From NCBI GenBank assembly GCA_040380225.1, contig JBEIJN010000014.1, forward strand, positions 1,995-65,994: a DNA stretch of 64,000 nucleotides. Direction: 5' to 3'. Positions 13,350 to 61,674 of this stretch are shown in pieces. Below the pieces are notes generated by a model. It searched no databases. It was not told the DNA's origin and was given only the letters and a program-made list of their open reading frames with translations. Made by a program: the position numbers and the translations under genes. Each line of letters opens with the position of its first letter. The first letter of the stretch is position 1. This stretch comes from Verrucomicrobiia bacterium (lineage in GTDB: Bacteria; Verrucomicrobiota; Verrucomicrobiia; Chthoniobacterales; UBA6821).

Positions 13350-13380
13350 GATTAAAATATAGCGTGATTAAAATATGACA

Positions 13381-38538: not shown

Positions 38539-39057
38539 TCATTCCAAGTTCTTGACTCCGGAATGCAATCTCCTAACGGCCTCCTCAATGGTAAGTTCAT
38601 GAGTAGGTATTACCAGTTCAGGATGTAAGGGGGGCTCATAGGGGGAATCAATTCCTGTGAACTTCGGAATCATGCCCGCGCGAGCCTTCTTGTAGAGCCC
38701 TTTGGGATCTCGCCCTTCGCAAGTGGAGAGAGGAGTGCTGACATAAACCTCAATGAACGCGACATCGCGCGCCTGACATAGCCCCCTGATTGCCTCCCTT
38801 TCACTTCGGAGGGGCGAAATCAAGGAGCAGATACTCGTGATGCCGGATCGCGCAGCCAGCAGGGCGATCGCCCCAGCGCGACGTATATTCTCCATCCGAT
38901 CCTCGGCTGAAAATCCAAGATCCCTGGATAGTTCCTCGCGCAAACCATCCCCATCTATCATGAGGGGATGAATGCCCTCAGCCTTGAGTTTCGCAGCCAA
39001 TCCATCCGCAAGCGTCGACTTTCCCGCGCCGGATAAACCTGTAAGCCAAATAATCAT
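38539..39057 (-). CDS. cysC: Adenylyl-sulfate (APS) kinase
   Basis: 172 aa. IIWLTGLSGAGKSTLA (P-loop), LDGD-like IDGDGLR, FSAEDRMENIRR, ISPLRSER, GLYKKARAG, FTGIDSPYEPP. Confidence 0.9.
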   Translation of the reverse strand: MIIWLTGLSGAGKSTLADGLAAKLKAEGIHPLMIDGDGLREELSRDLGFSAEDRMENIRRAGAIALLAARSGITSICSLISPLRSEREAIRGLCQARDVAFIEVYVSTPLSTCEGRDPKGLYKKARAGMIPKFTGIDSPYEPPLHPELVIPTHELTIEEAVRRLHSGVKNLE

Positions 39058-41941: not shown

Positions 41942-42931
41942 TCACTGGTTCAAAAACAGACGTGCTGCAAACAACCGCAACCAAGGTAGCCCTAGTAACC
42001 GTGTTGGGGCATGCCGACTTAAAGCAGAGATGAGACCCGTCAGAGATTGCCCGGATCTCTGAATCAATGTCTGGTATTCGAGGCCGATTTCATGCCAGGG
42101 GTTCCCGTGGACACGGCCGTAATTGGACACTGTATTTTCAAAAACCCGGCAATATTCATCCCAGTCAATTCCGCCGGGATCCTCCCACGATCGGGCAAGC
42201 ACATCTTCCTCACTAGGCGAGAGCATGGTTCCCAAGAAACGGTGGATATTCCTGCGCCTCACAAGGTTTATGTCGGCATCCCCTTGCAAGTCCCTTCTCA
42301 TGATCGATCCATCATGCACCCTGTATTTGACTAACTTATCCCGAATCATCCCGAAACGATTTTGGGCCGCAATCTCAGACCACAAGGCATAATCCTCAGA
42401 CTTTCGGGAAGCGGCATACCCACCGTATTCGTTTAGGATCCTTTCCCTTCGCATCATCACGGAACAATGAGGCACGGGATTTCTGAAGCACAGATCCCAC
42501 TTAAGCCATGGCGTGGAGAATGGGACCCTCATGACCCCGCGAGGGATCCCTGCCGAGCCTATAATGGTTGCGGCTGATCCAACAGCGTCGATGTGATTAT
42601 TGGCATTCAGGTAATCAAACTGCCGGGCCAACCGACACCTCATGGCAACATCGTCCGCGTCCATTCTCGCAACAAGCGGAGATGACGCGGAGATCAATCC
42701 CTCGTTCAGCGTGGCGACAAGCCCCTTGTTTTCCGAGTGGCGGATCAAGCGGATGCGGATGTCTCGAATCGAGGAAACGATATCAGGGGTCCCGTCGGAA
42801 GATCCGTCATCAATCACCAGCAGTTCAAAATCACGGAAGGTCTGATCCAGTATACTGCCAATGGATTCATGAATGAAATCGGCCGCATTGTACGCCGGCA
42901 TCAGCACTGTAACCAAGGGACTCTTCATCAC
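41942..42931 (-). CDS. Glycosyltransferase family 2
   Basis: VTVLMPAYNAADFIHESIGSILDQTFRDFELLVIDDGSSDGT, RMDADD. Confidence 0.85.
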   Translation of the reverse strand: MMKSPLVTVLMPAYNAADFIHESIGSILDQTFRDFELLVIDDGSSDGTPDIVSSIRDIRIRLIRHSENKGLVATLNEGLISASSPLVARMDADDVAMRCRLARQFDYLNANNHIDAVGSAATIIGSAGIPRGVMRVPFSTPWLKWDLCFRNPVPHCSVMMRRERILNEYGGYAASRKSEDYALWSEIAAQNRFGMIRDKLVKYRVHDGSIMRRDLQGDADINLVRRRNIHRFLGTMLSPSEEDVLARSWEDPGGIDWDEYCRVFENTVSNYGRVHGNPWHEIGLEYQTLIQRSGQSLTGLISALSRHAPTRLLGLPWLRLFAARLFLNQ

Positions 42932-44058
42932 GATAGCACCTCCCGGAAAATCTCCCCGTGGCGACGCATCCAGCCAGTCAGATCAAAAACCTCAACGGCA
43001 CGCTTCCTCGCGGATTCAGATATTGCCAGGCGATTGCCCATGATATGCTCCACCGCATCGGCTAGGTCCCCTGGATTCCCAGCACGATCACAGCTCCACC
43101 CCTGCTCCACCGGAACCAGCACGCCGCATGAATCCGTCACGAGTTCAGGCATCCCTCCGCTCCGCGTTCCGACAACCGGCAAACCGCTGGCCATCGCCTC
43201 GATGGGAACCGTCGGGCAGGGATCGTTGTATTTTGTGTGAAGTAACAGATTGGCGGTGCGATAGATTTCCGGAGCCTCTTCCTGGCCGAATGGAGGGAGG
43301 ATCGTGACGCGCCGATCCAAGCCGCACATCGCCTCCCTTACCTGCACTTCCGCATCCTTCCAGCGAAATTCTCCGGCAATCGTCAGATGCACGTCATGAC
43401 CTCGGGAGAGAAGCTCTCTGAGTGTATCGAGAGCTGATTTGGTTCTGTAGAGCGCATGACTTGTTCCCGCCGCAAGGATGCGCCACGGGCCATCCGGCAA
43501 CGATTGCATTCGGGGAGAAAAGACTTCCGTATCGACGGGATTGACCAGGATCTCGGACGGTACGGTCGATGATCCGAGATAACGCTCGGCACTGATGCGG
43601 GAGAACTCGCTCTGGTTGATGATGAAGTCGGCCTGATTGCGGAGCGCCGCCATCCGGCGGTTGAGCCAGGGATAGAAATCCCCGTAACATCCCGGATAGG
43701 CCACCCCGTTCTGGTTCCAGACAAGCTTGGCGCCCTTGCTTTTTGCCGCCCTGACGACCTCCTCAACCTGTGGTGGCAGGGCACTGCTCACCAGATACAT
43801 CACGTTGAAGTCGTCAAAAGATTCCGGGAAAGCCTTCCGGAGATGGATCAGCTTGATCTCCCCGCCGATGGGACGACCGGCCTTCATGGGAGCAAGTCGA
43901 CCGTAATTGACGGCAGGAACTCCGGATTCCGAAATCCGCACCAGAGAGGCCTTGGATCTTATAGTGATTTTTTCGGGAAAGCGACGGACCCTGCTGCCGA
44001 GTTCCCTAAGGCCGTACAGCAGATCATTCGCCAGCAGTGTCGGTTCGGGCCTTACCAT
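42928..44058 (-). CDS. Glycosyltransferase family 4
   Basis: 376 aa. YNDPCPTVPIEAMASGLPVVGTRSGGMPELV. 4-nt overlap with the downstream GT2. Confidence 0.75.
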   Translation of the reverse strand: MVRPEPTLLANDLLYGLRELGSRVRRFPEKITIRSKASLVRISESGVPAVNYGRLAPMKAGRPIGGEIKLIHLRKAFPESFDDFNVMYLVSSALPPQVEEVVRAAKSKGAKLVWNQNGVAYPGCYGDFYPWLNRRMAALRNQADFIINQSEFSRISAERYLGSSTVPSEILVNPVDTEVFSPRMQSLPDGPWRILAAGTSHALYRTKSALDTLRELLSRGHDVHLTIAGEFRWKDAEVQVREAMCGLDRRVTILPPFGQEEAPEIYRTANLLLHTKYNDPCPTVPIEAMASGLPVVGTRSGGMPELVTDSCGVLVPVEQGWSCDRAGNPGDLADAVEHIMGNRLAISESARKRAVEVFDLTGWMRRHGEIFREVLS

Positions 44059-44864
44059 GGGAGATCACGCCCCAGCAAGCCGGCAAGATCGGCATTCAAA
44101 GGCTTATAAAATTCCGCCAGCATCCTCTCCGCTTCACTTGGAAGAGGCTCCGCACCCCCTCCATCCCGTGCGTGGGGCATTTTCTTGACGGGGACAGGCT
44201 CCAACCCAAGATGCCTCCAACTTCTTGCAAGGTTTTCCTGTGGGGATTCCGTCAACTCCTCCAGAAAAAGCACCAACGATTGTTCACGCGGAAAATGACC
44301 CCACCACTCGCGTAGCAAGTCGGCATACATGCCGCAGCGGACGTAGCGGAGCGGATTATTCCACTGTCGCAGAGCTGATCGACAAAGAGCCGTGCCTGAT
44401 GGATCCGACAGCCACCGGACTGCATTCGTCACCGTTTTGGTGAAATCCGAGAGATCGTCACCCGACTTGCGGAACATCCTGTACTCCGACCAAGCCCTTA
44501 CCACCGGTTCCCTGAAAATGAAGATCAGCCTGGCATCCGGCATCACCTCGGCCGCACGGGCGGGCAAATCGGGATGGAACCAGTACTCCATGCTTGCATC
44601 CCCGCAGACCCATGGGGCGAACGGCCTGACAAAAGGGAAGTTCATCCTCAGACGAAGTTCGCTTCCCGGATAACGGATCATGCTGGCCGGTTCCTTGAAC
44701 GGCCCCCTTCGTACTCGCGGATGAAGGAGCAGTGCGTCAAAGAGGGAGGAGGAGCCGCACTTCGGAGCCCCGGGCATTAGGAAGGAAGGTCGCGTCCTGA
44801 GCGGAGCGGTAAGCAGGCGGCATGCCTTCGAGATCTCGGCGTTGATGTCGGGCTTTTTAGGCAT
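44052..44864 (-). CDS. PAPS-dependent sulfotransferase
   Basis: 5'-PSB loop PGAPKCGSSSLFDALLLHP and 3'-PB element FIFREPVVRAWSEY. Start trimmed to ATG 44864, 2 nt after the upstream stop. Confidence 0.75.
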   Translation of the reverse strand: MPKKPDINAEISKACRLLTAPLRTRPSFLMPGAPKCGSSSLFDALLLHPRVRRGPFKEPASMIRYPGSELRLRMNFPFVRPFAPWVCGDASMEYWFHPDLPARAAEVMPDARLIFIFREPVVRAWSEYRMFRKSGDDLSDFTKTVTNAVRWLSDPSGTALCRSALRQWNNPLRYVRCGMYADLLREWWGHFPREQSLVLFLEELTESPQENLARSWRHLGLEPVPVKKMPHARDGGGAEPLPSEAERMLAEFYKPLNADLAGLLGRDLPW

Positions 44865-44866
44865 GG

Positions 44867-46021
44867 TCAGCTTGCTGGAAGGAAGGATCGAATCCGAGAC
44901 GCGATTTTCCTGCCCACGGCATCCCATGTAAACTCTTTCTCCACCATCGTCCTTCCGGCGCTTCCCATGACGCGCGCCCGGTCCTGATCCTGCAAGAGGG
45001 CGACAATGGCAGAGGCAAACTCCTCCGTATTCCTGGGATCAACAAGCCGGCCGGTCACCCCATCCCTCACACGCTCGGCCCCTGCTCCGAAGGGCGTGGT
45101 GATCACCGGCAACCCGTAGGCGGCGGCATCCAGCGCCAGCATACTTGCCCGCTCCACGCGACTCGGGACACTGACAAGGGCTGCCTTGCGAAAGAGCTGG
45201 TCCAACTCCCCGAGCCTCACCCTTCCGAAAACCCTCATCCCTTCCTGAGCACTCCGAGGCTGTGCTCCAACCACCCAGAGTTCCGCGGAGGGTATCTTCT
45301 GCCGGACTCTTTTGAATGCAGCAGCGAGTTCCTCTCCTCCCTTGATCCCCCAATCCGCTCCGACAAATAGAATCACGGGTTCGGGCGTTGAGGCAGACTC
45401 CTCCAGAAGCGGCAGATCCATGTTGATCCCGGTGGAAACTGTCAGCACTCGTTCCTCGGGAATCCCGTAATCCAAGACGACTGACTTTTCGCAGAAACGA
45501 CTCAGGGTGAAGACCGTCGCCGCCTTCGGGTAAAGAGCAGCTTCTAATCTTATCCATTCTGGTGATGCCGGCGCCGGCGATCCCCCGCCCGGTTGGCGTT
45601 TGTGCGCCTCGCGGGTGTGATCCGTATAGATGAAGAATGGGATTCCCGGATGCGAGGCATCAAACATCGACTGCGTCTGGAAAATGAAAGAGACCCGGGA
45701 AGGATCAATATTCCGCAGGATCCACAACGAGATCAGATCCCATGCCTTCGGTTCCTGGAAAACAAAATCCCAAGGGCTGTGCCTTCCCCGGAGGAGCGGC
45801 ACCAACCGCTTCATGGAGGCCTTGCAGCACAGCCACAGTGAGTGTAACGGAAAGGATGACAGAATATCGCGCGCCGCATCCACGACTTCCAGCTCACACT
45901 CAGGAAACCGCTCCCTCAGCACCCTCTCCATCTTCGCGTTCACGTGTGAGAACGATCCGTATTTGACGAAGATGATCCGATTCGGAATTCCACCGCCAAG
46001 AGGAGAGGATGATGAGTTCAT
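44867..46021 (-). CDS. Glycosyltransferase family 4
   Basis: 384 aa. VSVPSRVERASMLALDAAAYGLPVITTPFGAGAERV. Confidence 0.7.
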   Translation of the reverse strand: MNSSSSPLGGGIPNRIIFVKYGSFSHVNAKMERVLRERFPECELEVVDAARDILSSFPLHSLWLCCKASMKRLVPLLRGRHSPWDFVFQEPKAWDLISLWILRNIDPSRVSFIFQTQSMFDASHPGIPFFIYTDHTREAHKRQPGGGSPAPASPEWIRLEAALYPKAATVFTLSRFCEKSVVLDYGIPEERVLTVSTGINMDLPLLEESASTPEPVILFVGADWGIKGGEELAAAFKRVRQKIPSAELWVVGAQPRSAQEGMRVFGRVRLGELDQLFRKAALVSVPSRVERASMLALDAAAYGLPVITTPFGAGAERVRDGVTGRLVDPRNTEEFASAIVALLQDQDRARVMGSAGRTMVEKEFTWDAVGRKIASRIRSFLPAS

Positions 46022-47133
46022 TTTGGGGACAAAACGGCTTTCACCGCGTCAACATGCCGTGGCGCGACAACCTCCGTTGCATAATGTTCCAAAAACACAC
46101 GGCGCGACGCATGCGATGCCTCAGCGCGCCATTCATCACTGCGGGCAGTCTCGAATGCCCCACCCCACTCCTTATAGGACTCACAGATCGTAACGGCCGC
46201 CCCCCCCGTGCTCCGATCCCTCACATCCAGATAGCTGGGTTGGGGGCTTGCAATAGCGGGCAGGCCGCAAGCCATCCCCAGAGTGATCTTCCATTCCGTA
46301 TGAGACTGGTTGTACGGGTTCTCCAGAAACCTCGGCGAGATAACTACCCCAGGTTTTTCGGCATACAGCGAGAGCAGATTCTCGATCGACCTGAACCGAT
46401 GGGTTGTGTGGGGCACTGAAGAAAGAAGAGACTCAAGACTCGCCGCAGCAGTGGCGTCCAGGCGACTCACGGCTGATTTCAAATCGCCCGTCACAAGATG
46501 CAGTCTGATCTTCTTTCCCATCGAGCGCATCGCCTCTCCTGCCGCAAGCAGATCGGACGCCTTGTCAGCCATCCCCGACCACCAGACATGGAGTGCGGAA
46601 TCATCGCGCGGGACGGTAGCCTGCGGCGTGGGGATCATTCTCGCGGGAATTTGGTCCGGAACCCAGAAAACGTTAGGATTCCACGCCGCGCAAATTGCTG
46701 TCAGATGACTGGAGGAGGCAATCACGCCGTCCGTCAGGGATGTCATCCTGATTGCTTTTTCCCTCTGCGCCGAGGTTGGTCTTAAATGCCCGGGGAGCGT
46801 CCCTCCCCCCCCTTCGGTGTAGTAATCGACATTGGCCTCGAAGATGACCTTTGTCCCCTTCTCCTTGAGCCTTTCGGCAAAGTCGGCGCATCCGGCCTCC
46901 ATTGACTTAAGAAATACCACCGCGTCGTAACGACGCCAGGGTTTGAAAAGCTCATAGCGCATCCCGAAACCTGGATCACGGTTCACCACCTCCGCAATCC
47001 AGCCAAAGCGCATGAAATTCATGGGGGAGTGCCGGTCCGGCCACCCCGTCAGGAGGTAATGAGGTTTCATACCTCGCATCACCGCTTTCCATTCAGGAAA
47101 ACGACTATTGATGATGAATCCGATCCGCTTCAC
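46018..47133 (-). CDS. Hypothetical GT-B-like glycosyltransferase
   Basis: Likely GTG start at 47133, overlapping the upstream TGA (GTGA). GT-B-like C-terminal half (KITLGMACGLPAIASP). Weak family call. Confidence 0.45.
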   Translation of the reverse strand: MKRIGFIINSRFPEWKAVMRGMKPHYLLTGWPDRHSPMNFMRFGWIAEVVNRDPGFGMRYELFKPWRRYDAVVFLKSMEAGCADFAERLKEKGTKVIFEANVDYYTEGGGGTLPGHLRPTSAQREKAIRMTSLTDGVIASSSHLTAICAAWNPNVFWVPDQIPARMIPTPQATVPRDDSALHVWWSGMADKASDLLAAGEAMRSMGKKIRLHLVTGDLKSAVSRLDATAAASLESLLSSVPHTTHRFRSIENLLSLYAEKPGVVISPRFLENPYNQSHTEWKITLGMACGLPAIASPQPSYLDVRDRSTGGAAVTICESYKEWGGAFETARSDEWRAEASHASRRVFLEHYATEVVAPRHVDAVKAVLSPK

Positions 47134-47982: not shown

Positions 47983-49140
47983 TCACCGACGTTTGCGAAT
48001 CCAATCCCGGCAAGGCATCTCAAAATAGCGGTAGGAAAGATCCGATAATCCGAGAACCACTGCTAGGAGAACCGCAAGATTGATGAGTCCATGCCCGAGT
48101 AGACTTGCGGAGAAATGCTCCTTCCCTATCCGAATCAGGAATACAATCCACCCCATGACAAGAATATGCCACAGATAGATTGAATAGGATCTTTCACCCA
48201 ACCATTGGAAAACCCTGTGCTTGAGGATCCCTGTAATAATGCCGCTGTCATAGGCACTGAAGAGAATGAGTGCCGGGAACGCATAGAGTAGGTACTGGTC
48301 GGGGAGCCCCCCCTGTCTGGTCAGCACTAACACCATCACCACGCCGATCAACACGGCGTCGATGAACGGAAAACGCAGGATGAATGCAGGAATCCTGCGA
48401 AACACGGAACAGAGAAAGAACCCTGCCGCAAAACCCAGGATGCCTTTTGCCAAAAATCGTGATTGCCACTCGAAATCACCCACATGCAGCGGCGGAATCT
48501 TGTAATTCGCCATCCACCATGTGGCGGCCAAGGCAAGGACCGCTGACAGAAACCCGATGCCGCGCCTATCCGCGCACCGTGTGACCAAGAGAACGAGAAG
48601 AGGGAAAACAAAGAGGTAACAGAAGAATTCGACGCTGATCGACCATGCGGGTGAATTCAATGTCTCTCTCCAACCGAAAAGCACACCCGATACCATCGTG
48701 AAGTTGGTGAGTAGGGTGATCGCTGGATTGCCTGTCAGAACCTCCGGTTTATGCCCCCAGATCGCATAAAATGAGAGAGGGGTTAGAAAGGGAAGCAAGG
48801 TGAGATAATACAGCGGCATGATACGACCAATGCGTGCACGGAGATATGAAGACCAAACGATGGGGCGATCCCGGCCGACATAAACCCAGTTGAGGATGAA
48901 CCCGCTCAGCATGAAAAACAGAAGGACAGCCTGATAACCCCAGTTGAAGAGCGAGAACCAACGGACATCCAGCCCCCAGTCGGTCAGGATGCCGTTTTTT
49001 GCCTGACCTCCCACATGCCCCAGAAAGACGCTCATGGCAGCGATTCCACGGAGCGCCGTGTGGGACTGGATTTCCGACCCGGGCCTCTTGGGCGCGGGTG
49101 CCCGCAATCCTTGGAAAAAACCAGCCATGCCGCCGCTCAC
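47983..49140 (-). CDS. Membrane O-acyltransferase, acyltransferase-3 (AT3) family
   Basis: 385 aa, about 10 TM. ALRGIAAMSVFLGH, FFMLSGF, AWSISVEFFCY, SYSIYLWH. Confidence 0.75.
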   Translation of the reverse strand: MSGGMAGFFQGLRAPAPKRPGSEIQSHTALRGIAAMSVFLGHVGGQAKNGILTDWGLDVRWFSLFNWGYQAVLLFFMLSGFILNWVYVGRDRPIVWSSYLRARIGRIMPLYYLTLLPFLTPLSFYAIWGHKPEVLTGNPAITLLTNFTMVSGVLFGWRETLNSPAWSISVEFFCYLFVFPLLVLLVTRCADRRGIGFLSAVLALAATWWMANYKIPPLHVGDFEWQSRFLAKGILGFAAGFFLCSVFRRIPAFILRFPFIDAVLIGVVMVLVLTRQGGLPDQYLLYAFPALILFSAYDSGIITGILKHRVFQWLGERSYSIYLWHILVMGWIVFLIRIGKEHFSASLLGHGLINLAVLLAVVLGLSDLSYRYFEMPCRDWIRKRR

Positions 49141-50168: not shown

Positions 50169-52097
50169 TTACGGCATGACGGTTCGGTCGAGATAAGTGA
50201 CGTGATCTTTCACATACCCTTTGCGGAGATGGGCCTTGTCGAACCGGATGGGACCCTGCTCGTTCTCCTGGATGCACCAACCGTCGATGCACAGAAAATC
50301 AAGTGGATCGATCACCTCGGCACCGTTTGCCAGTGCAACACGTTTCATGTCCTTCCTTGAAATGAAGTCGCCGATTCCATTCAGGAACTCCTCCCGGCTC
50401 ACGGGAACGGGCCTGCTGATGCTGATGCCGGTGAAGGTCCTGGTGATGAAGTGACGTGGATCGAAGACATCGCCATTCGGGACGCTCAGCACCAGCACCA
50501 CCTCCTTGCCCTGCTCGTGTAGCGATCGAATAAGGGCTCCGAGGGCAGCGATAGCCTCGTTCTCACCTATCGGGGTCGCCAGAGAGTGACCGTTGATCTC
50601 AAACTTGCTTCCTTTCTTAAAATAAGGATCCCAGTTGGCAGCAATCACCACCCGTCGGATCAATGGGTTCTCCTGAAGCACGCCCATAAGACGGCCCATT
50701 GCAATCGCGGTGGTTTTTATTGGATCGATCACCCCGGGAATGGGTGGGCGACCGCCGGATCCCAGCATCAATACTCCTGTGTTTTTATCTTTGAGCCCGT
50801 TCACCACGATCCGGATGCGCGGCGCGTAATGCCACATGTTGCTGTCGCCAAGGTAAAGGGTTCGGATCTCCTTCCCACCAACCCTGCAGAGGTAGACATT
50901 CCCTTGAGTATCAGTCTCCCAACCATCGAAAAACCCTTGGTTTTTGGTGGCAAAAGCCACCTGCTCAATCCTTGCGGTCGTCGTCGGATAGATCCCCTTT
51001 CTCCAGATGATCCAACCGAAGATACCGGCAATGAGGAAGGATGCCACGAGCAACCAAAAAACAGCACGGGATCTCGTGTGGCGGAGCGGTTTCTCGATGA
51101 GATAGTAGGTGAAAATCGTCAGTACGAGTGCGACTCCCAAAGCCATCCAGATAACACCGGGCGGAGGATTGGTACCTTTGACAATATGCAGGAATGACAA
51201 GGCAGGCCAATGGAAGAGATAGAGCGGATAGCTGATCAGGCCGATCCAGACTATCGCCGGATAGGAAAGGAAGAAACGGTTGAACCAAGCTCCTTTTCCT
51301 CCCTCCATCACCAGAACCGTCCCGCATACTGGCAACAAGGCCCTCCATCCCGGATAGAAGGCATCCTCGTGAATGAAGGCAAAACCTGCCGCGAGCAGAA
51401 GTACTCCAACAAAGGATAAAAGATGCCTGTGTACCGGCACATCCTCCTCGTGCCCCCTTTCAAAGTGCCACCATGCCAGAAGCGAACCTCCGAGAAATTC
51501 CCATGACCTCCATGGGGTGAGGAAAAAAGCGGCGGAACCGCTTATGCGGGATATCAGGAGATTTCCGATCAACGAGGCCAGAAACAGCCCCCCCAGAACT
51601 CGGGCCATCGGCCAGCGTTTTCTGGCAACAAGGAGAAGCAGCGGGGGGAAGAAAATGTAGAACTGTTCTTCCACAGCCAGCGACCAGAGATGCAGGAGTG
51701 GCTTCGTGTCAGCCGCAGTATCGAAGTAACCGCACTCCTGCCAGAAGACGATGTTCTGGATAAAGACAGCTCCAGCCGCGACATGCTTCCCAAGTTGTTC
51801 GTATTCCCCCCGGAGCAGCACGAAGAACCCATAGGCAAGACAGAGTCCTAGTACTGCCACCAGCGAGGGAAAGAGGCGGCGAACCCGGCGCGCATAAAAC
51901 TCGGAAAAGCTGAAATCACCCGCCTTTACACCCTTGTAAAGGATCCCGCTGATCAGATAGCCGGAAATCACGAAGAAAATGTCCACACCGGTGAATCCTC
52001 CGGGCAACGCCTTGGGAAAGGCATGATAGACAATCACGCCGAGCACGGCGACAGCCCTCAGGCCATCGATGTCGGGGCGGTATCGCAGAGAGGTCAT
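50169..52097 (-). CDS. AT3-SGNH fused O-acyltransferase (OafA/YrhL-like), paralog 1
   Basis: 642 aa. YRPDIDGLRAVAVLGVIVYHAF, VDIFFVISGYLIS, LWSLAVEEQFYIFFP, ISYPLYLFHWP. C-terminal extracytoplasmic domain with LGDSNMWHY (SGNH block I-like). Confidence 0.8.
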   Translation of the reverse strand: MTSLRYRPDIDGLRAVAVLGVIVYHAFPKALPGGFTGVDIFFVISGYLISGILYKGVKAGDFSFSEFYARRVRRLFPSLVAVLGLCLAYGFFVLLRGEYEQLGKHVAAGAVFIQNIVFWQECGYFDTAADTKPLLHLWSLAVEEQFYIFFPPLLLLVARKRWPMARVLGGLFLASLIGNLLISRISGSAAFFLTPWRSWEFLGGSLLAWWHFERGHEEDVPVHRHLLSFVGVLLLAAGFAFIHEDAFYPGWRALLPVCGTVLVMEGGKGAWFNRFFLSYPAIVWIGLISYPLYLFHWPALSFLHIVKGTNPPPGVIWMALGVALVLTIFTYYLIEKPLRHTRSRAVFWLLVASFLIAGIFGWIIWRKGIYPTTTARIEQVAFATKNQGFFDGWETDTQGNVYLCRVGGKEIRTLYLGDSNMWHYAPRIRIVVNGLKDKNTGVLMLGSGGRPPIPGVIDPIKTTAIAMGRLMGVLQENPLIRRVVIAANWDPYFKKGSKFEINGHSLATPIGENEAIAALGALIRSLHEQGKEVVLVLSVPNGDVFDPRHFITRTFTGISISRPVPVSREEFLNGIGDFISRKDMKRVALANGAEVIDPLDFLCIDGWCIQENEQGPIRFDKAHLRKGYVKDHVTYLDRTVMP

Positions 52098-52108: not shown

Positions 52109-54046
52109 TTAGGGAGCAACGGTAAAATCGAGGTACATCAACTTATCCCTGACATATCCCGGACGGAGGTGCGTAGCATCATAGCGGATGGGACCATCAG
52201 TATCTTCGGCGATACACATGCCGTCCACGCAAAGGTAATCCATAGGGTCAATTACCTCCGCTCCGTTTCTTCGTGCCACCGCAGCGATCTCGGACAAGAA
52301 ATCCCCCCTATCTTCAAGAAACTCCTTCACAGTCAGTCGACCCGCCGAACAGCTGCGAACCCCAGTGAAATCCCTTGCGAAAAAACTTTTTGGATCGAGC
52401 AGATCACCCGACGGCACGCTTAGCACAAGCGTGACTTGTTTCCCGGACAGCGCAAAATTGTTTATTTCGCGCCCCAAATCCTCAAGGGCAGTTTTTCTTC
52501 CATTCACGCCGCTCATGGGTTGCCCTTGATGCAAGTATTTTGAGTGATCCATGAAATAGGCATGCCAGCGAGCTGCTATCACCACACGGTCAATTCTTGG
52601 ATCAGAGTTCAGTACCTCATGGATCTTTGGCATCAACGCCACACACCTTGGTTTTGCGGGATGGGTTACGCGGGGAATCGGGGGAACCCCGACAGATGTC
52701 AGAAAAAGAGCCCCCCTTGCCGGATTGGCAGACTGTTTAGTCAAGAGCCTCAATATTCGCGGTGCATACTGCTGGGCATTACTGTCGCCGATATAGAGTG
52801 TCTGCGGCCCTTCCCCTCCAGCATGGTTGAAGCTAAAGAGTTGAGCATCACCCAAGCACTGCAATCCCGCCAGCGAATCATGATCGCGCGTTGCCGTCAC
52901 ACACTTCTGAACATCGCCTGAAACCGATATTGCTGGGATCCAACCCCTGAAAATCGCCCAACCAGCAAATCCCAAGAGAAGGTAGATCAGGATGAGAGTG
53001 GGCAACACCCGGGCGGACATGCAGTACCTGATCTTTTTCTCAACGAGATAGTAAGTGATGAGCGTCAGCGCGAAGGCAACTCCCAAGGCCATCCAGATAA
53101 GTTCCGGCTCAGGATTCGCACCTTTGACGATGTGAAGGAACGACAATGCCGGCCAGTGGAAGAGGTAGAGGGGATAGCTAATTAGCCCCACATACACCAT
53201 TGCAGGATGGGAAAGGATCCTTCTGTTCACCCAAGCACCGCCGCCCCCCTCGATCACCAGCAGCGTACCCGCTACTGGCAGCAGGGCTCGCCATCCGGGA
53301 TAGGGTTGCGCCTTCGTCAGCAAGATCATGCCTAGCAGCATCAGGATGGCCCCCGCCCAGGAAAGGATCTCCCTGTGCTTTGGCTTCTCCGCATGATGAG
53401 CCCGATCATAGTGCCACCATGCAAGGAGACTTCCTGCCAGGAACTCCCATGCCCGATAGGGCGTCAGGAAGAAGTCTGAGGCTGCACTCTGATACGACAT
53501 CACCACGTTGCCAATGAAGGAACCGATGAGAAGCACGCCCATGATGGCTGCAGGCGGCCACTTCTTTTTCCAGATCAGCAGTAGGAGCGGCGGAAAGAAG
53601 ATATAGAACTGTTCCTCCACCGCAAGCGACCAGAGGTGGAGTAGCGGCTTGAGAATGGCCGCCGTGTCAAAATAACCGCTCTCCTGCCAGAAAACCATAT
53701 TCTGGATAAAGAGAGTTCCTGCCGCCACATGCTTTCCCAGCTTCTCATACTCGTCCGGCAGCAGAATGACCCACCCATAGCCCAGGCAGAGCAGCAGAAC
53801 GGTGATGAGCGAAGGAAAGAGCCTCCTGATACGCCGTGCGTAGAACTCCTTGAAGCTGAAGGGCCCTTCCCTATGACCCTTGTAGAGAATCCCGCTGATC
53901 AGATATCCGCTAATCACGAAGAAGATATCCACCCCGCTGAACCCTCCCGGCAATAACTTCGGGAACGCATGGAAAATGATGACGCCGAGAACCGCCACAG
54001 CCCTTAGGCCATCAATGTCGGGACGGTATCTCAGTGAAACACTCAT
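52109..54046 (-). CDS. AT3-SGNH fused O-acyltransferase, paralog 2 (tandem duplicate)
   Basis: 645 aa. N-terminal AT3 half is highly similar to paralog 1 (same motifs). The C-terminal half (IGDSNAQQY) is clearly more diverged. Confidence 0.8.
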   Translation of the reverse strand: MSVSLRYRPDIDGLRAVAVLGVIIFHAFPKLLPGGFSGVDIFFVISGYLISGILYKGHREGPFSFKEFYARRIRRLFPSLITVLLLCLGYGWVILLPDEYEKLGKHVAAGTLFIQNMVFWQESGYFDTAAILKPLLHLWSLAVEEQFYIFFPPLLLLIWKKKWPPAAIMGVLLIGSFIGNVVMSYQSAASDFFLTPYRAWEFLAGSLLAWWHYDRAHHAEKPKHREILSWAGAILMLLGMILLTKAQPYPGWRALLPVAGTLLVIEGGGGAWVNRRILSHPAMVYVGLISYPLYLFHWPALSFLHIVKGANPEPELIWMALGVAFALTLITYYLVEKKIRYCMSARVLPTLILIYLLLGFAGWAIFRGWIPAISVSGDVQKCVTATRDHDSLAGLQCLGDAQLFSFNHAGGEGPQTLYIGDSNAQQYAPRILRLLTKQSANPARGALFLTSVGVPPIPRVTHPAKPRCVALMPKIHEVLNSDPRIDRVVIAARWHAYFMDHSKYLHQGQPMSGVNGRKTALEDLGREINNFALSGKQVTLVLSVPSGDLLDPKSFFARDFTGVRSCSAGRLTVKEFLEDRGDFLSEIAAVARRNGAEVIDPMDYLCVDGMCIAEDTDGPIRYDATHLRPGYVRDKLMYLDFTVAP

Positions 54047-55122
54047 TCAGATGAAGATGCCCGCTCAATGACGCCGGCCAATCGCTCGGCAAAACCTTGG
54101 GCCGTCCACTTTGCCCCAAGAAGCGCATTCCTCGCGGCAAGCACACTGGATGTCGACATGGTTCCCTGAATCGCCGCCGCAAACTCTTCCGCATTGTCAG
54201 GGCTCACCAGTGAAACTTCTTTCCCGTCGCGAATGACATCGCTCCCCCACCATCCCGAGGTTTTGGTGATGACCACGGGGGCTTCGCACATCATCGCCTG
54301 CATGGCCACACTCTGCCCGGACGGCTGAAGGCTTTCCCTAAGTGGAACCAACACGCACGCGGCCATCTGGTAAAGATCCCGGAGCCCTTCATCGCTTAGC
54401 GCGTTTTCCTTCCAGTCACCACGACGCCAGAGGACATTCTTCGGCAAATTGTCAGGGGCATCCAGACGTGTGACCACGGTGAAGGGAATCGCCGGAAGGA
54501 TCCTTGCCGTCTCCACAAGCGTGGCGTAGTCACGACGACCATCGTTCCCCACGGCAAGAACTCCACTGCGGTTTCCGTCGATAGACGGAGGGATCCAGAA
54601 AGTCTCATCCACTCCAAACCAACCCGATTGGATTTCATCAGCCTCGGGCTTGAAACGCTTCCTGATCTCAGCCTCCTCTGAATCTGCGAAGAGCACGGCC
54701 TGCATCCGGCCCAGCAGTCGGGCGGTGATGATCCTGCGTACCTCTGATCCTATAGGATAATTGACAGCTCCACAGAGAATTCCCGCGAGAGGCTTCTTGA
54801 ACAGGCCCAGTTCTTTCCAAAGAGCCAGACCGAAGGAAATCTCGGTCGCTGTTGCAACCACCACATCGTAGCCCTTCAACTTCGGAAGCAGACGACGCGT
54901 CCGGGCAATCCAATCGGCCGAAGTTCTGGGAGGAACAAGTATGCCCAAGAGCCCCCCTGCGATCAGGCCGGTCAGCGGATCTGCCGGTTCGGCATCCACC
55001 TCGAGGCAATCCACAGTCCATCCGTGGCGAGAGGATAACTCCCTGGCCCCATAAAAGAAATCGGACGGCCCGTCGGTTCCCCGAAGATGCCGTCCGCCAG
55101 CGTAGACAAAGGCAACCTTCAT
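54043..55122 (-). CDS. GT-B fold glycosyltransferase (GT4-like)
   Basis: Start trimmed to MKVAFVYAGG (ATGA overlap with the upstream stop at 55119-55122). LQPSGQSVAMQAMMCEAPVV. Confidence 0.55.
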   Translation of the reverse strand: MKVAFVYAGGRHLRGTDGPSDFFYGARELSSRHGWTVDCLEVDAEPADPLTGLIAGGLLGILVPPRTSADWIARTRRLLPKLKGYDVVVATATEISFGLALWKELGLFKKPLAGILCGAVNYPIGSEVRRIITARLLGRMQAVLFADSEEAEIRKRFKPEADEIQSGWFGVDETFWIPPSIDGNRSGVLAVGNDGRRDYATLVETARILPAIPFTVVTRLDAPDNLPKNVLWRRGDWKENALSDEGLRDLYQMAACVLVPLRESLQPSGQSVAMQAMMCEAPVVITKTSGWWGSDVIRDGKEVSLVSPDNAEEFAAAIQGTMSTSSVLAARNALLGAKWTAQGFAERLAGVIERASSSE

Positions 55123-55955
55123 TTCATTCGGAAGAGCCTCCACCTGATTCCCTCCATAACTTTCCCAATCACCCCCGCCATCCAGGCATCCCATCCGATC
55201 CAGTATCCGAGGCATCGACCGGGCTTGCTCAGAATCCCGAAATGCCTCGGAGAAGCCTCCCTGAGCCTCGGTAGGAATACCCGGGGACTTCCGCTCTTGT
55301 TCAATGAAGCCGACAACGCCTCGTAATCTGGATGCCGCCCGTGGAGGATTTTTACCGACCCCCTTCCCGCGAACGCAGGCATGATGAATCGGAAGTTGTA
55401 TTCGGGAGGCAGAGTCGCGAAGGAAACATCACTCTGCCACAGCGCATCCCTCAGCGACGGTTGGTCATCGATCACGCCGGTGCTCGTGAGTCTTTCCTGA
55501 TAAAGCTTCTCCCAGAGTGAAAAAAGCGAGCGAGTGCGGTCATTCAGATGATAGGCAATCACCCCGCTGTTGCATTCGGGAAAGGTCGGCGGAACCGACG
55601 AGGTTGCGGTAAATCTCATCGGGGCGTGGGCCATGGCGACATCATGCCGATCCAAGATGGCAAACATCTCGGGAACCGGCTCGCAGAGCCATGTATCGGT
55701 ATCGAGAAACACAGTTCTTTCAAATGGCGTCGAAAGAAGCGGCCCGATCTTATCGGAGAAATTAAACTGCGGGTTTGCTATCGCGAGATGATGATCAAAC
55801 AGATCTTTCGGTGGCGATAGATCGGATGCGATCGCTATCGGAACCCCAGGCATCACCGAGCGGATACGCACGGCAGATCGGCATGACTCATCAAGGAATC
55901 TGCGCCCTGTAGCGATAAAGTAAAATCCGGTGGATGATTCCTTCATACTATCCAT
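55119..55955 (-). CDS. GT-A fold, GT8-like nucleotide-sugar transferase
   Basis: Start trimmed to MDSMKESS (TAATG overlap with the upstream stop). FLDTDTW (DxD), CNSGVIAY, DDQPSL. Confidence 0.5.
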   Translation of the reverse strand: MDSMKESSTGFYFIATGRRFLDESCRSAVRIRSVMPGVPIAIASDLSPPKDLFDHHLAIANPQFNFSDKIGPLLSTPFERTVFLDTDTWLCEPVPEMFAILDRHDVAMAHAPMRFTATSSVPPTFPECNSGVIAYHLNDRTRSLFSLWEKLYQERLTSTGVIDDQPSLRDALWQSDVSFATLPPEYNFRFIMPAFAGRGSVKILHGRHPDYEALSASLNKSGSPRVFLPRLREASPRHFGILSKPGRCLGYWIGWDAWMAGVIGKVMEGIRWRLFRMK

Positions 55956-57202
55956 TACCGAGTATTTACACCTCGTCGGAAGTGCCTGTGATAAATCTCC
56001 TTGGCCACGCAGGAAGCCATCCTCGAGACAAACTTGCCGGAAGAGCAACCCTTGGCGACGATTCGGTTCGGGGAGAAAGCTGCGAGAAGAAGCCCAGCCC
56101 CCAACCCTCCGGAAGTTTCATAACCATATTGTGGGAGAAGCTTACCAAAAAGCCCCTCGATGAGGTCTTTTTGCTTATCGCTCAATTCCGATTTCCAGCG
56201 TCCCGACATCTTGGGGCTAACCGTTCCGGAAGCCATCCCATCGGAATCCATTCTCGAAGTATTGGACCCAGCAGAGCGCCCGTAAACCGAGGGAGTGAGA
56301 AGAACCTTGTCAAATCCTATGCCCAGGAACTCAGCGATCCGCTTCATCTCGGCGGAGGTGTTGGCAACGAGATCCTCGTAACGCACGATATGATGAGAAG
56401 CGCTTAGGATTCTGTCGTTTGAAAGTCCAAACCTCATCGAGCTATGGATCGCCTCCATTTCATTGATCAGGGAGAAAGAGCGAAACTTCTTGTGCTGCTT
56501 GCGGGACTGCGCGGCAATGATCGCACCAGGATGACGCACGATGTGCAGGAATTTAGCCTCAGGGAACACTGATGCCAGGCGAAGGGCCTCCTCGGCATTA
56601 CCCGTCGATTTCTCAACCCATCCTTTTTTCACTTGGCCCGAAGGCGCCATCTCCTCCTCGATACTGCAGTATGCCCATGCCATGGCCGAGAGCAGCGACT
56701 CGGAAGAGTCCAAGCCTCTCTTCGTGGTGGCCAGTTCCAGCATCGCGGCGATCCGCGGATAGGCAGCGTGTTCCCTACCCGCAATCCATGTCGGCTCCTC
56801 CCCCGCGATGGGCATCACCAGGGAATGAATCATCGTCTCCAGAAGGGAGGATCGACGGTGTTCCCGCGGGCATTTCATCACAAGATCCATAAATCGGATC
56901 CCATGACCATCGGTTGGTAGCGTGTAAAGCTCAGGATGGCCGTCGAGCAGATTTCTCAAAAGAGTCGTCCCCGACTTGTGGGAGCCGCCGATGAATATCG
57001 GTCTCTGCACGACAGACTCGGGGACAAGCGTGGGATGCAGCCCGGCCGTTGACTGCTCCGCCCGCGCTCTCAGGCTGCTCACCTGATTTCGGAAACGTTC
57101 CGCGGAAGGGTGAGGGGAGACAAGCAGGAATCTCTCGCCGGCGGAGCGGGCTTCATCCAGCGATGCGTCTATATTCTTAAGTGATTGTTCCAGTTCCATC
57201 AT
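55955..57202 (-). CDS. PAPS-dependent sulfotransferase with an N-terminal ~75-aa extension
   Basis: 5'-PSB loop FIGGSHKSGTTLLRNLLDGHP and 3'-PB element FLHIVRHPGAIIAAQS. Confidence 0.75.
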   Translation of the reverse strand: MMELEQSLKNIDASLDEARSAGERFLLVSPHPSAERFRNQVSSLRARAEQSTAGLHPTLVPESVVQRPIFIGGSHKSGTTLLRNLLDGHPELYTLPTDGHGIRFMDLVMKCPREHRRSSLLETMIHSLVMPIAGEEPTWIAGREHAAYPRIAAMLELATTKRGLDSSESLLSAMAWAYCSIEEEMAPSGQVKKGWVEKSTGNAEEALRLASVFPEAKFLHIVRHPGAIIAAQSRKQHKKFRSFSLINEMEAIHSSMRFGLSNDRILSASHHIVRYEDLVANTSAEMKRIAEFLGIGFDKVLLTPSVYGRSAGSNTSRMDSDGMASGTVSPKMSGRWKSELSDKQKDLIEGLFGKLLPQYGYETSGGLGAGLLLAAFSPNRIVAKGCSSGKFVSRMASCVAKEIYHRHFRRGVNTR

Positions 57203-57224: not shown

Positions 57225-58460
57225 TCAGTCCAGCACGATCCGTGCAGGCATGCCCGCAATCATCGGATCACATCCTCCGTGACGCATTGCGCGTGATATA
57301 TTGCCATCTCCATCGCAGATCCAGTTTTCGGCGGCTCCGGCTTTGGACAAGAGACCGATGTTTTTGAATATCTGCTCCTCGCTGGTGTCATGGGATTTCA
57401 TATGGACGCAGATTTCGGGAGCTCCCGAGTATGCGGGCAGGCGACATAGAGTGGAACGCCGCGCTTCCGAGATCCAAGCCACATCGGCGACGCGAACACC
57501 ATCCCCGGTCTCGATCGGCACATCGACCAGCACATGCCCGCCCTGCAGCGACCGGGCCAGAAGCGAGCTGATAGCACCGACCATTTCGGCACGTCTCGAT
57601 CCCGTACCTGCTGAAAAATGCGATGCGCCGTGAAGATGAAGCCCCTCCGTGTAGAAGTCCGCCGCCTCCAGCGCGGGCGCATCGCAGACCACCCTTCCTT
57701 GCTGCAGGACGATGGCCCGGTTGCAGAGTTGCTTCACACTCTCGGCGGCATGACTCACGAAGAGAATCGTCACCCCTGAGTTCTTCGTCGCCTCGATCTT
57801 CTCAAGGCACTTCTCCTGGAACGCCGCATCCCCCACGGCCAGCACTTCGTCGAGGATCAGGATCTCCGGATCCAGATGAGCCGCCACGGAGAATGCCAAC
57901 CGGACTCGCATGCCGCTAGAGTAACGCTTGACCGGCGTGTCCATGAACTTCTCGATCTCGGCAAAGGAAAGGATCTGGTCATAGCGATCATCGATTTCCT
58001 TCTTTTTTAGCCCAAGGATACTTCCGTTGAGATAGACATTCTCCCTGCCGGTGAGCTCCTGGTGAAATCCGGTTCCCACCTCCAGGAGACTTGCCACGCG
58101 CCCCTTCATGTATGCTTTTCCCTCGGTGGGAGCAGTTATCCTGGAGAGAAGCTTCAACAGCGTGGACTTGCCGGAGCCATTGCGCCCCATGATTCCCACG
58201 ATGTCACCTTGATGGACTTCAAAGCTTATATTCTTCAGAGCCCAGAAGTCATAGGCCTCCGGCAAGCTGTCCGTATTCTGTTCATGGACACGGCTATTGG
58301 GGTCTGTTTTTCCCAGCTTCCTTGAGACATAGCTCTCGATCTGATCGACCAGCATCTTCCGGGTGATCACCCCCAGGCGGTATTTTTTGGAAAGGCCCTC
58401 GGCACGAATCACGCACTCCTTAAGTGCATTATTCGATATTGTTAATTGGTCATTATGCAT
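57225..58460 (-). CDS. wzt: Polysaccharide ABC exporter ATP-binding protein (Wzt/TagH-like) with an atypical C-terminal domain
   Basis: Walker A GRNGSGKST, signature YSSGMRVRLAFS, Walker B ILILDEVLAVGD. The C-terminal ~135 aa resemble the Uma2/DUF820 fold (see findings). Confidence 0.85.
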   Translation of the reverse strand: MHNDQLTISNNALKECVIRAEGLSKKYRLGVITRKMLVDQIESYVSRKLGKTDPNSRVHEQNTDSLPEAYDFWALKNISFEVHQGDIVGIMGRNGSGKSTLLKLLSRITAPTEGKAYMKGRVASLLEVGTGFHQELTGRENVYLNGSILGLKKKEIDDRYDQILSFAEIEKFMDTPVKRYSSGMRVRLAFSVAAHLDPEILILDEVLAVGDAAFQEKCLEKIEATKNSGVTILFVSHAAESVKQLCNRAIVLQQGRVVCDAPALEAADFYTEGLHLHGASHFSAGTGSRRAEMVGAISSLLARSLQGGHVLVDVPIETGDGVRVADVAWISEARRSTLCRLPAYSGAPEICVHMKSHDTSEEQIFKNIGLLSKAGAAENWICDGDGNISRAMRHGGCDPMIAGMPARIVLD

Positions 58461-58564: not shown

Positions 58565-59422
58565 CTACGCCGTATCCACGCTCGTCTGCTCGACTTTGTT
58601 GAAGACGATCAACCCCAGAAAAAGGATCCCGATGCTCAGTGTTGCGCTGATCACGACCTGCCCGAAGGTAACGGTCCCCTGCCCCATGAATGCGCATCGA
58701 AATGCCTCGATCACAAAGACAATCGGGTTCCAATCATACATCCATCGGTAGCTCTCAGGAACCACCTTCAGTGGATAGACCACACAGCTTGCGTACATCC
58801 AGAGCTGCATAAAGAAACCAAGCAGCACCTGGAGATCTCGAAACCTGCTTGTCACTCCAGAAATCAGGCAACCCACCCCCAGACCGAGTGCAGCCATCTG
58901 GATGATGAGTACCGGTAATACGATGATCCTCCAGTCAAGGCGGATAGGCGCCCCGTGGAAGTAAAACCAGAGATAGAACGCAAAGAAGAGGACTAATCCC
59001 ATGGCCAGTCCCACGAGATTGGTGATCAGTTGGGAGATCGGCACGGCCAATCGCGGAAAGTAGACTTTATCGAACATTCCTTGGTTCGAGGTGAAGGTGT
59101 TCGCCGTCTTGGTCACACACTCAGAGAAATACCTCCAGCAGACCGTTCCGGAGAGATAGAAGAGAATCGGCGGAATTTCCCCAGTGGAGATCTTGGCAAC
59201 CCTTGTGAAGACCAGCACGAACATAAGGCTCTGCAGCAGCGGCTGCAGCACATACCAGAAGGATCCCAGAACCGTCTGCTTATACTGGGAGACGAAGTCC
59301 CTGTGGGCCATCAGCCCGATCATCTCCCGGTAGTCCCAGAGTTCCTTGAAGGGGATGTACAGGAGATTACGCCGGGGAGTGATGACCGTAGTCCAGGATT
59401 CGGAAGTTGAAGATGAGGACAT
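58565..59422 (-). CDS. wzm: ABC-2 type polysaccharide exporter permease (Wzm/KpsM/TagG-like)
   Basis: 285 aa, 6 TM. ELWDYREMIGLMAHRDFVSQYKQTVLGSFWYVLQPLL, NPIVFVIEAFR. Confidence 0.8.
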   Translation of the reverse strand: MSSSSTSESWTTVITPRRNLLYIPFKELWDYREMIGLMAHRDFVSQYKQTVLGSFWYVLQPLLQSLMFVLVFTRVAKISTGEIPPILFYLSGTVCWRYFSECVTKTANTFTSNQGMFDKVYFPRLAVPISQLITNLVGLAMGLVLFFAFYLWFYFHGAPIRLDWRIIVLPVLIIQMAALGLGVGCLISGVTSRFRDLQVLLGFFMQLWMYASCVVYPLKVVPESYRWMYDWNPIVFVIEAFRCAFMGQGTVTFGQVVISATLSIGILFLGLIVFNKVEQTSVDTA

Positions 59423-59971: not shown

Positions 59972-59975
59972 CGCT

Positions 59976-60734: not shown

Positions 60735-60817
60735 GTGCCATCCCAGGCGCTTGGTTCAAGTTTCAGCTTTTCATCTCTGGCACTCGACGCTCGACCCTCG
60801 ACCCTCGACTCAGCTCG
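60735..60817 (+). repeat. Hairpin+TTGGTTCA module, heptamer array and CTCGAC array overlapping the 3' end of the GT2 gene
   Basis: GTGCC-ATCCCA-GGCGC-TTGGTTCA (60735-60758), AGTTTCAGCTTTTCATC, CACTCGACGCTCGACCCTCGACCCTCGACTCAGCTCG (60781-60817). Confidence 0.65.
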
Positions 60818-61629: not shown

Positions 61630-61674
61630 TTCACTATTTTTCTCGGTCTCTACACTGTTGGATTTCACAATTTT

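Follow-up and report, generated by a model that had tools for sequence, protein, structure and literature searches.

ST1, a predicted PAPS-dependent sulfotransferase encoded in a glycan-assembly array of a Chthoniobacterales bacterium

ST1 is the name given here to a sulfotransferase gene, and to its product, located between two glycosyltransferase (GT) genes in a 64,000-nucleotide stretch of contig JBEIJN010000014.1 (the window), from a Verrucomicrobiia bacterium of the order Chthoniobacterales. The protein is almost certainly a sulfotransferase that depends on 3'-phosphoadenosine 5'-phosphosulfate (PAPS). It is predicted to be soluble and to belong to the heparan sulfate (HS) 3-O-sulfotransferase/N-sulfotransferase-like branch (3-OST/NST-like), of the type of XssA from Synechocystis. 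Taken as a whole, the probable explanation of the locus is that ST1 O-sulfates the glycan of this gene cluster before its export by the transporter Wzm/Wzt, and the host cell probably makes a sulfated surface polysaccharide. This explanation builds on properties which were computed or observed: the fold, the PAPS motifs and their conservation, the position of a glutamate, the solubility, the linkage to GT genes, and the co-located genes for an adenosine 5'-phosphosulfate (APS) kinase and an exporter.

Fold and cofactor site of ST1

Residues 79–222 of ST1 match the Pfam families Sulfotransfer_1 (PF00685; 34 bits for a cutoff of 22) and Sulfotransfer_3 (PF13469; 33 bits for a cutoff of 27), with a Pfam E-value of 2.6e-8, and the remainder of the protein is covered by structure-based evidence. 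NCBIfam gives no match for ST1. In a phmmer search of the PDB, the single ST1 sequence matches 3rnl (1.9e-13), human HS 3-OST-3 (3A1; 3e-13) and NST (8e-4). A profile of the orthologous clade matches the same database more strongly: 3rnl at 1.5e-31, 3-OST-3 at 2e-26, 3-OST-5 at 2.5e-22, 3-OST-1 at 1.3e-20 and the N-sulfotransferase domain of NDST1 at 1.2e-18, while the cytosolic SULTs are at about 1e-4 (best about 6e-5). Judged from these scores, the resemblance of ST1 to sulfotransferases far exceeds chance.

The AlphaFold2 model of ST1, built from 45 homologues, has a predicted local distance difference score (pLDDT) of 93.2 and a predicted template modelling score (pTM) of 0.90. It shows an α/β fold with a central parallel sheet, which can be superimposed on solved sulfotransferases. 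Foldseek finds 36 PDB matches at E≤1e-3, and all among those listed are sulfotransferases. The best 21 matches are all 3rnl, NDST1 or 3-OSTs, with template modelling (TM) scores of 0.66–0.75; 3rnl is found at 3.5e-13 (27% identity) and NDST1 at 2e-11 (8ccy) and 5.7e-11 (1nst), both with TM 0.68–0.69. The next in rank is the CurM sulfotransferase (CurM ST), where the TM score falls to 0.46, and CurM ST, TPST, Stf9 and the SULTs all remain at or below 0.48. By sequence and by structure, ST1 is nearer to 3-OST/NST than to the SULT, TPST, Stf and CurM-ST branches.

The original prediction, which read ST1 as a carbohydrate sulfotransferase from the DNA, had named membership of a non-sulfotransferase P-loop family as a finding that would count against it. 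Profile and structure searches lead to carbohydrate sulfotransferases, and a P-loop kinase or NTPase is ruled out, no such family being present in the Pfam or Foldseek results. A PAPS-independent aryl-sulfate sulfotransferase is ruled out too: those enzymes have a different fold, and ST1 keeps the 3'-phosphate-binding motif. The same holds for the mycobacterial Stf type, Stf9 being found by Foldseek at only 5.7e-4 and TM 0.47. The "heparan/Stf-type" look ascribed to the protein can be refined: ST1 is of the heparan type in its fold, in its PAPS site and in having a glutamate base, but not in its heparan-binding residues, and the likeness to Stf is not supported.

Both motifs quoted in the original prediction are present, PGAPKCGSSSLFDALLLHP at residues 31–49 and FIFREPVVRAWSEY at residues 115–128, and the 5'-phosphosulfate-binding (PSB) loop and the 3'-phosphate-binding (3'-PB) element were checked base by base (Table 1). 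In the model, the PSB loop sits after a strand (28–31) and ahead of a helix (38–45), and the 3'-PB element consists of a strand (112–117) and a helix (120–133). K35 is aligned with K162 of 3-OST-3, and the 3'-PB element aligns with VVRDPVTRAISDY of the same enzyme (RDPVTRAIS), R118 and S126 corresponding to its arginine and serine. The PAPS contacts, the loss of which among orthologues had been named as the other possible objection, are conserved in the 45 homologues, the identity of which goes down to 23%: residue 35 is lysine in 40 and arginine in 5, R118 is found in 45/45 and S126 in 43/45. Around them, G32 and P120 are present in all 45 sequences, R123 in 44 and G37 in 43. R23, Y94, Y180, R233 and W270 are invariant within the clade of ST1.

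E58 is conserved in 43 of the 45 homologues and the preceding K57 in 42. E58 is aligned both with the "KEP" motif of XssA and with E184, the catalytic base of 3-OST-3, in which K162 is among the residues required for activity (PMC8341778). The four features by which a 2024 review characterises polysaccharide sulfotransferases are a glycine and a catalytic lysine or arginine in the PSB loop, a serine in the PB helix, a β-sheet core and a histidine or glutamate base, the base being glutamate in both HS3ST and NST (PMC11625862); all of them are found in ST1. E58 is thus a candidate for the catalytic base, predicted from its place at the glutamate-base position, in the loop after the PSB helix, as in the HS 3-OST/NST-like branch.

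Other residues differ. R166, H186, D189, K215 and Q255 of 3-OST-3 are replaced in the alignment by S39, A60, I63, A90 and M130 of ST1 (residue list from PMC8341778). The heparan-binding residues are not conserved, which indicates that ST1 is not a 3-OST orthologue. Of nine residues that matter in 3-OST-3, five are replaced in ST1; this, together with the indirect character of the case for activity, could suggest that ST1 is a relic without catalytic activity or that its role in the assembly complex is purely structural. This is very improbable: the cofactor and catalytic positions described above are strongly conserved, the replaced residues are heparan contacts, which are expected to differ if the acceptor is different, and the array includes a dedicated APS kinase.

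Genomic position and conservation of the locus

The open reading frame (ORF) exists at the position given in the original prediction, and the strand, which was not stated there, can now be added: it is the minus strand. The 2-nt gap upstream and the 7-nt overlap downstream were both read directly from the sequence. On the minus strand, the stop codon TGA of the upstream GT4 gene (44869–44867) is followed by CC and by the ATG of ST1 (44864–44862), and in the downstream junction, ATGGTAA, the ATG of the next GT gene (44058–44056) overlaps the end of ST1 with its TAA stop (44054–44052).

An alternative start, an ATG at 44927 from which the frame is open throughout, would lengthen the protein to 291 aa and make its gene overlap the upstream GT4 gene by 61 nt. 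Public gene calls carry this 291-aa form, and the same choice of start explains why close relatives are listed as 290–292 aa; the 270-aa sequence itself had no exact match in a look-up, the recorded form being the 291-aa gene call. The start at 44864 is the better one, because orthologues at 43–60% identity have a length of 267–271 aa, starting at M1 of the 270-aa form, and because M1 is conserved in at least 90% of a tighter alignment (A2). ST1 is basic (pI 9.3) and its maximal 19-residue Kyte-Doolittle mean is 0.84, compared to 2.6 for Wzm. The lack of a hydrophobic or transmembrane segment fits a soluble cytoplasmic enzyme.

ST1 belongs to a co-directional array which comprises about nine glycosyltransferases, three acyltransferases, two sulfotransferases, an APS kinase and Wzm/Wzt (Table 1). 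In order of transcription, the first part consists of Wzm, Wzt, a second sulfotransferase (ST2), a protein of about 273 aa, a GT4, two AT3-SGNH acyltransferases, a GT4, an AT3 and a weak GT2 match. These are followed by a protein of about 370 aa, a GT4, ST1, a GT4, a GT2, a hexapeptide acyltransferase, two GT4 and the APS kinase CysC, which makes PAPS and begins 67 nt past the last GT4. The location of ST1 between two GT4 genes is borne out by Glycos_transf_1 and Glyco_trans_1_4 matches in both neighbours, the N-terminal GT4 match of the downstream one being below the cutoff (20 bits). Wzm and Wzt, an ATP-binding cassette (ABC) transporter, head the array, which indicates an ABC-transporter-dependent pathway, and no flippase or polymerase of the Wzx or Wzy families is matched by Pfam among the array genes.

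A word-indexed search gave 95 homologues of ST1, and the few that are named are "sulfotransferases" from Chthoniobacterales or Terrimicrobiaceae. Out of 1.84 billion representatives searched exhaustively, 17,705 matched at E≤1e-3, 4,223 at E≤1e-10 and only 20 at E≤1e-30. The score falls from 273 to 173 bits beyond the first two 50%-identity clusters, which suggests that ST1 forms a discrete orthologous group within a very large superfamily. When one genome per GTDB species was scanned with alignment A2, 28 loci were found, all in metagenome-assembled genomes of Verrucomicrobiota (Chthoniobacterales, Terrimicrobiaceae and "Spartobacteria").

These 28 loci were compared by tblastn with the operon proteins of the window. 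The order weak GT2, ~370-aa protein, GT4, ST1, GT4, GT2, GT4 occurs in every sufficiently long locus. GT4-ST-GT4 is present in 25/25 loci that cover both flanks, with sulfotransferase identities of 43–92%, and nothing in the three truncated loci contradicts it. The 7-nt overlap between the sulfotransferase and GT4 genes recurs in loci L029 (80% identity) and L033 (52%). A relative at 40% identity (L034) lies in a cluster of another type, with a UDP-glucose dehydrogenase and a fused ABC exporter, and its gene overlaps the flanking GT genes by 1 and 4 nt. The proposal that ST1 is an integral operon member is strengthened by this synteny and by the APS kinase in the same array. A hypervariable O-antigen island is ruled out, the core order being kept across 43–92% identity.

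The accessory genes vary between loci: the AT3 copies, ST2, CysC, a methyltransferase and the hexapeptide transferase. CysC is linked only in the window and in L002 (99%) and L003 (80%), an unrelated 122-aa gene taking its place in L029. ST2 is absent from L029, an 80%-identity relative; Wzt is also found in L001 and L029, and L033 carries an extra methyltransferase. ST1 is part of the conserved core, and ST2, CysC and the acyltransferases are lineage-specific decoration or supply genes. In L001–L028, the identity of the upstream GT4 to that of the window is in one of two classes (about 35–42% and about 58–60%), and the downstream GT4 is at 46–58%; these values suggest either an exchange or a divergence of the upstream GT4 in some members of the clade. 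More distant family members are less uniform in their neighbourhood: four were sampled at 30–40% identity, two of which are in sugar-nucleotide or GT clusters and two outside.

Several other genes of the array deserve mention. The match of Wzt to the ABC ATPase family stops near residue 206, and a C-terminal extension of about 150–200 aa has no Pfam match; C-terminal extensions of other Wzt proteins bind the capped glycan terminus. ST2 starts 22 nt past Wzt, and identical copies in the order toxin-antitoxin, Wzm, Wzt, ST2 are found in two other assemblies. In the PDB it matches 4gox (6e-14) and TPST2 (2e-8), a likeness to the CurM/olefin-synthase and tyrosylprotein sulfotransferases. ST1 and ST2 are ruled out as paralogues, their best local match being at E 0.011 over 34 residues. 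The proximity of ST2 to the exporter ATPase raises the idea of a sulfation that terminates the chain end.

The ~370-aa and ~273-aa proteins occupy fixed cluster positions and are kept in nearly all of the 28 related loci; they may be unrecognised glycosyltransferases or modification enzymes. The AT3 copies differ among close relatives (none between the two GT4 genes in L001, one in L029), so that O-acylation looks like a fast-evolving part of the glycan. The G+C content is 0.554 in the array and 0.598 in the first 38 kb of the window, with 0.579 for ST1 and 0.538 for cysC. Between an upstream GT2 gene and Wzm, a PIN-domain protein of 144 aa (22.5 bits, just below the Pfam cutoff) is preceded by a 79-aa ORF, and the same pair is found ahead of Wzm in another locus (L039). 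It looks like a VapBC toxin-antitoxin system inserted in the glycan locus. The dTDP-rhamnose genes of the window lie about 25 kb from the array.

Table 1. Features of the window discussed in the text; positions are those of the whole stretch
Feature	Position	Strand	Description
dTDP-rhamnose genes	within 11531–14868	minus	RmlB-like 11531–12595; RmlC 13381–13932; RmlA 13987–14868
Whole co-directional array	38539–59422	minus	~21 kb; Pfam; intergenic distances −145 to +104 nt
CysC, APS kinase, last array gene	38539–39057	minus	PF01583, 194.9 bits; P-loop GLSGAGKST
Downstream GT-B (GT4-like) GT	42928–44058	minus	376 aa; Glyco_trans_1_4 65.8 bits, Glycos_transf_1 63.5 bits
ST1	44052–44864	minus	270 aa + stop on translation
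3'-PB strand-turn-helix of ST1	44481–44522	minus	F115-I-F-R118-E-P120-V-V-R123-A-W-S126-E-Y128, read directly
E58 of ST1, candidate catalytic base	44691–44693	minus	K57-E58-P59, aligned with E184 of 3-OST-3 ("EPHFFD")
PSB loop of ST1	44742–44774	minus	P31-G-A-P-K35-C-G-S-S-S-L41, read directly
Upstream GT4-type GT	44867–46021	minus	384 aa; Glyco_trans_1_4 90 bits, Glycos_transf_1 78 bits, Glyco_transf_4 36.6 bits
~370-aa conserved protein	46018–47130	minus	No Pfam, NCBIfam or PDB sequence match; faint Glyco_trans_1_4 hint, E 0.26 (GT-B)
Three AT3-family acyltransferases	47983–49140, 50169–52097, 52109–54046	minus	Two are tandem AT3-SGNH fusions
~273-aa conserved protein	55119–55940	minus	No Pfam, NCBIfam or PDB sequence match
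ST2	55955–57202	minus	415 aa; Sulfotransfer_3 95.7 bits; XssE/CurM-ST/TPST-like
Wzt, ATPase	57225–58460	minus	411 aa; ABC_tran 85 bits
Wzm, ABC-2 permease	58565–59422	minus	ABC2_membrane 72 bits
PIN-domain protein and preceding ORF	59537–60215	minus	144 aa and 79 aa
Upstream GT2	60763–61668		

Acceptor, proposed mechanism and significance

ST1 is proposed to be a soluble cytoplasmic enzyme which would use PAPS as the sulfate donor and decorate the glycan made by the surrounding glycosyltransferases. The G32-A-P-K35-C-G-S-S-S loop would bind the 5'-phosphosulfate of PAPS, R118 and S126 would bind its 3'-phosphate, and E58 would deprotonate the acceptor hydroxyl of the sugar. The transfer would be in-line, with K35 stabilising the leaving phosphate, and its products would be 3'-phosphoadenosine 5'-phosphate and a sugar O-sulfate. 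PAPS, which the array's own APS kinase would supply, is cytoplasmic, so that sulfation must precede export, while the glycan is under assembly; export by an ABC transporter implies that chain synthesis ends in the cytoplasm, the compartment that contains PAPS. Sulfation would thus take place on the lipid-linked glycan during assembly, at the inner membrane face, and the finished polymer, sulfated and O-acylated, would be exported in this lineage by the Wzm/Wzt of the array. The identity of the acceptor, the choice of a hydroxyl over an amine, the sugar and the position, and the timing in assembly are what we infer here.

The acceptor is probably the glycan of this cluster. It is quite unlikely that ST1, being only co-located with the GT genes, acts on a nucleotide-sugar precursor, a glycolipid or lipid anchor, or a small metabolite. 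Such an acceptor would be compatible with the size of the family, with the 3-OST acceptor-binding residues that are not conserved in ST1, and with the location of some distant members outside glycan clusters (P0082, and P0083, which adjoins giant surface proteins) or downstream of sugar-nucleotide modification genes (P0086). However, the start/stop-coupled place between two GT genes is kept in all the informative loci and also in the 40%-identity relative L034, and XssA, the closest relative studied genetically, is needed for the production of a sulfated polysaccharide.

O-sulfation rather than N-sulfation is likely. An N-sulfotransferase resembling the NST domain of NDST1, with an amino sugar of the glycan as its acceptor and the free amine, not a hydroxyl, as the site of sulfation, has some arguments in its favour: the NDST1 domain is among the best fold matches and is found by the clade profile at 1.2e-18, NST also has a glutamate base (PMC11625862), and the exopolymers of Pontiella, in the same phylum, are reported to be mostly N-sulfated (PMC7356697). 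This alternative is nevertheless improbable. The sequence favours the O-sulfotransferases, both with phmmer (3e-13 for 3-OST-3 compared to 8e-4 for NST) and with the profile (2e-26 compared to 1e-18), and Pfam reveals no N-deacetylase or sugar aminotransferase among the array genes, which would expose or create the free amine.

Several observations weigh against the proposal that ST1 O-sulfates the glycan of its cluster. Only two of the nine activity residues of 3-OST-3 are kept, so that the acceptor cannot be deduced by analogy, and Foldseek places the N-sulfotransferase domain of NDST1 (2e-11) at almost the same distance in fold as the O-sulfotransferases. Distant relatives occur without linked supply or export genes: L029 lacks CysC, and L033 has neither CysC nor an exporter within 10 kb, and the sampled distant member P0082 is outside a glycan context. 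Where the window is annotated, neither a priming phosphoglycosyl transferase nor an ATP sulfurylase was found, and no sulfated glycan from Chthoniobacterales is reported in the literature searched (Chthoniobacter and sulfotransferase). No priming enzyme of the WecA/WbaP type and no outer-membrane export or ligation partner is found among the ORFs scanned, some small ORFs having been left unscanned, and no CysQ is seen in the window. Priming and outer-membrane export or ligation genes are often encoded elsewhere.

The original prediction is correct in substance, and ST1 is an ordinary addition to a known type of sulfotransferase. Its homologues are already labelled "sulfotransferase" by NCBI, and systems that combine GTs, a sulfotransferase, a PAPS gene and an ABC exporter have precedents in structural chemistry; the general understanding of such systems is unchanged by this locus. 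What is mildly new is that the GT4-ST-GT4 core is shared by an entire clade of Verrucomicrobiota that are abundant in soil and fresh water, and that its sulfotransferase is of the 3-OST/NST-like, XssA-type branch. The orthologous group and its conserved neighbours, in at least 28 species-level genomes, predict a sulfated surface glycan in these organisms. Sulfated polysaccharides have long been considered rare in bacteria other than cyanobacteria. A third mildly new point is that the locus implies producers of such a polymer in a phylum better known for the degradation of sulfated polysaccharides. Such a glycan would influence the surface charge, metal binding, the interactions with phages and grazers, and organic sulfur pools, and the compact cluster of GTs, sulfotransferases, APS kinase and ABC exporter would be a candidate for the engineering of sulfated glycans.

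A bolder and rather doubtful idea is that the GT4-ST-GT4 core specifies a sulfated surface glycan conserved across Chthoniobacterales and Terrimicrobiaceae, in which sulfation is an obligatory in-line step of assembly and not a late decoration. If this were true, the downstream, translationally coupled GT4 would accept the sulfated intermediate only. The clade would then be a widespread maker of sulfated polymers in soil and fresh water, by means of bacterial cousins of the animal HS sulfotransferases.

Comparison with known systems

The animal 3-OST-1, -3 and -5 and the N-sulfotransferase domain of NDST1 share the fold of ST1 (TM 0.68–0.75), the PAPS elements, the glutamate-base position and the C-terminal LREFYxPxN...W tail. 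The heparan-binding surface of the 3-OSTs is not conserved in ST1. The animal enzymes are type II membrane proteins of the Golgi lumen, which act on the finished chain, whereas ST1 is predicted to be a soluble, cytoplasmic bacterial protein encoded in a GT operon. The top match by both sequence and structure, 3rnl from Alicyclobacillus acidocaldarius, is a bacterial and soluble protein of similar length; it is a structural-genomics entry from a different phylum, and the likeness is uninformative on the specificity of ST1.

To our knowledge, the acceptor is known for very few bacterial polysaccharide sulfotransferases. Other carbohydrate sulfotransferases of bacteria that have been characterised include LpsS and NodH from rhizobia and KpsS from Mesorhizobium. 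A review of the polysaccharide enzymes (PMC11625862) cites KpsS. Pontiella (Kiritimatiellae) belongs to the same phylum as the host of ST1 but to a different class, and consists of marine anaerobes. It has sulfated exopolymers, reported to be mostly N-sulfated, and a putative glycosaminoglycan sulfotransferase of the PF13469 type, assigned by homology only, in a cluster of GT2 and GT4 genes (PMC7356697). The likeness to ST1 is one of gene context.

Vibrio sp. KMM 8419 and Cobetia marina KMM 1449 have sulfated capsules (Rha2S-type) proven by nuclear magnetic resonance (PMC11641403, PMC11766843). Their loci combine GTs, one or more sulfotransferases, genes for PAPS synthesis and an ABC transporter, and the authors consider the sulfotransferase and PAPS genes as a hallmark of sulfated polysaccharide synthesis (PMC11641403, PMC11766843). 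Compared by gene content, these loci and the array are alike in system logic, and the window also has rmlA/B/C. The marine gammaproteobacterial loci are of the group-3 Kps type and contain a full cysNDC (and cysQ), whereas the array has Wzm/Wzt and cysC only. Rhamnose is the sulfated sugar in both the Vibrio and the Cobetia capsules.

Among plasmid records, ST1 has 144 matches, including one on pSYSM of Synechocystis; each of them carries the annotation "sulfotransferase" and is less than 35% identical. XssA (sll5042) is encoded there, in the synechan (xss) cluster of Synechocystis PCC 6803, and matches ST1 in blastp with E 2e-16 and 25% identity over 208 aa. The alignment (residues 26–226 of ST1) matches the PSB loop, the K-E-P base motif and RxPxxRxxS. 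ST2 in turn matches XssE (3e-13), and the cross pairs ST1/XssE and ST2/XssA are weak, which indicates that the window has the same two sulfotransferase subfamilies as the xss cluster, the one bacterial cluster for a sulfated exopolysaccharide to have been dissected by genetics. The deletion of xssA abolished the sulfated exopolysaccharide and bloom formation, and that of xssE had little effect (PMC8205485).

The role of XssA rests on genetics, and at such a low identity the acceptor of ST1 need not be that of XssA. The two systems also differ in that the xss cluster relies on polymerisation by Wzx/Wzy and the array has the ABC exporter Wzm/Wzt, and the xss cluster is plasmid-borne, cyanobacterial and devoid of an APS kinase in the region compared. 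They are alike in that XssA and ST1 are both found among GT2 and GT4 genes, together with a second sulfotransferase of a different subfamily. By similarity and gene context, ST1 can be described as a predicted polysaccharide sulfotransferase of the XssA type, a type that is used here without a formal family definition.

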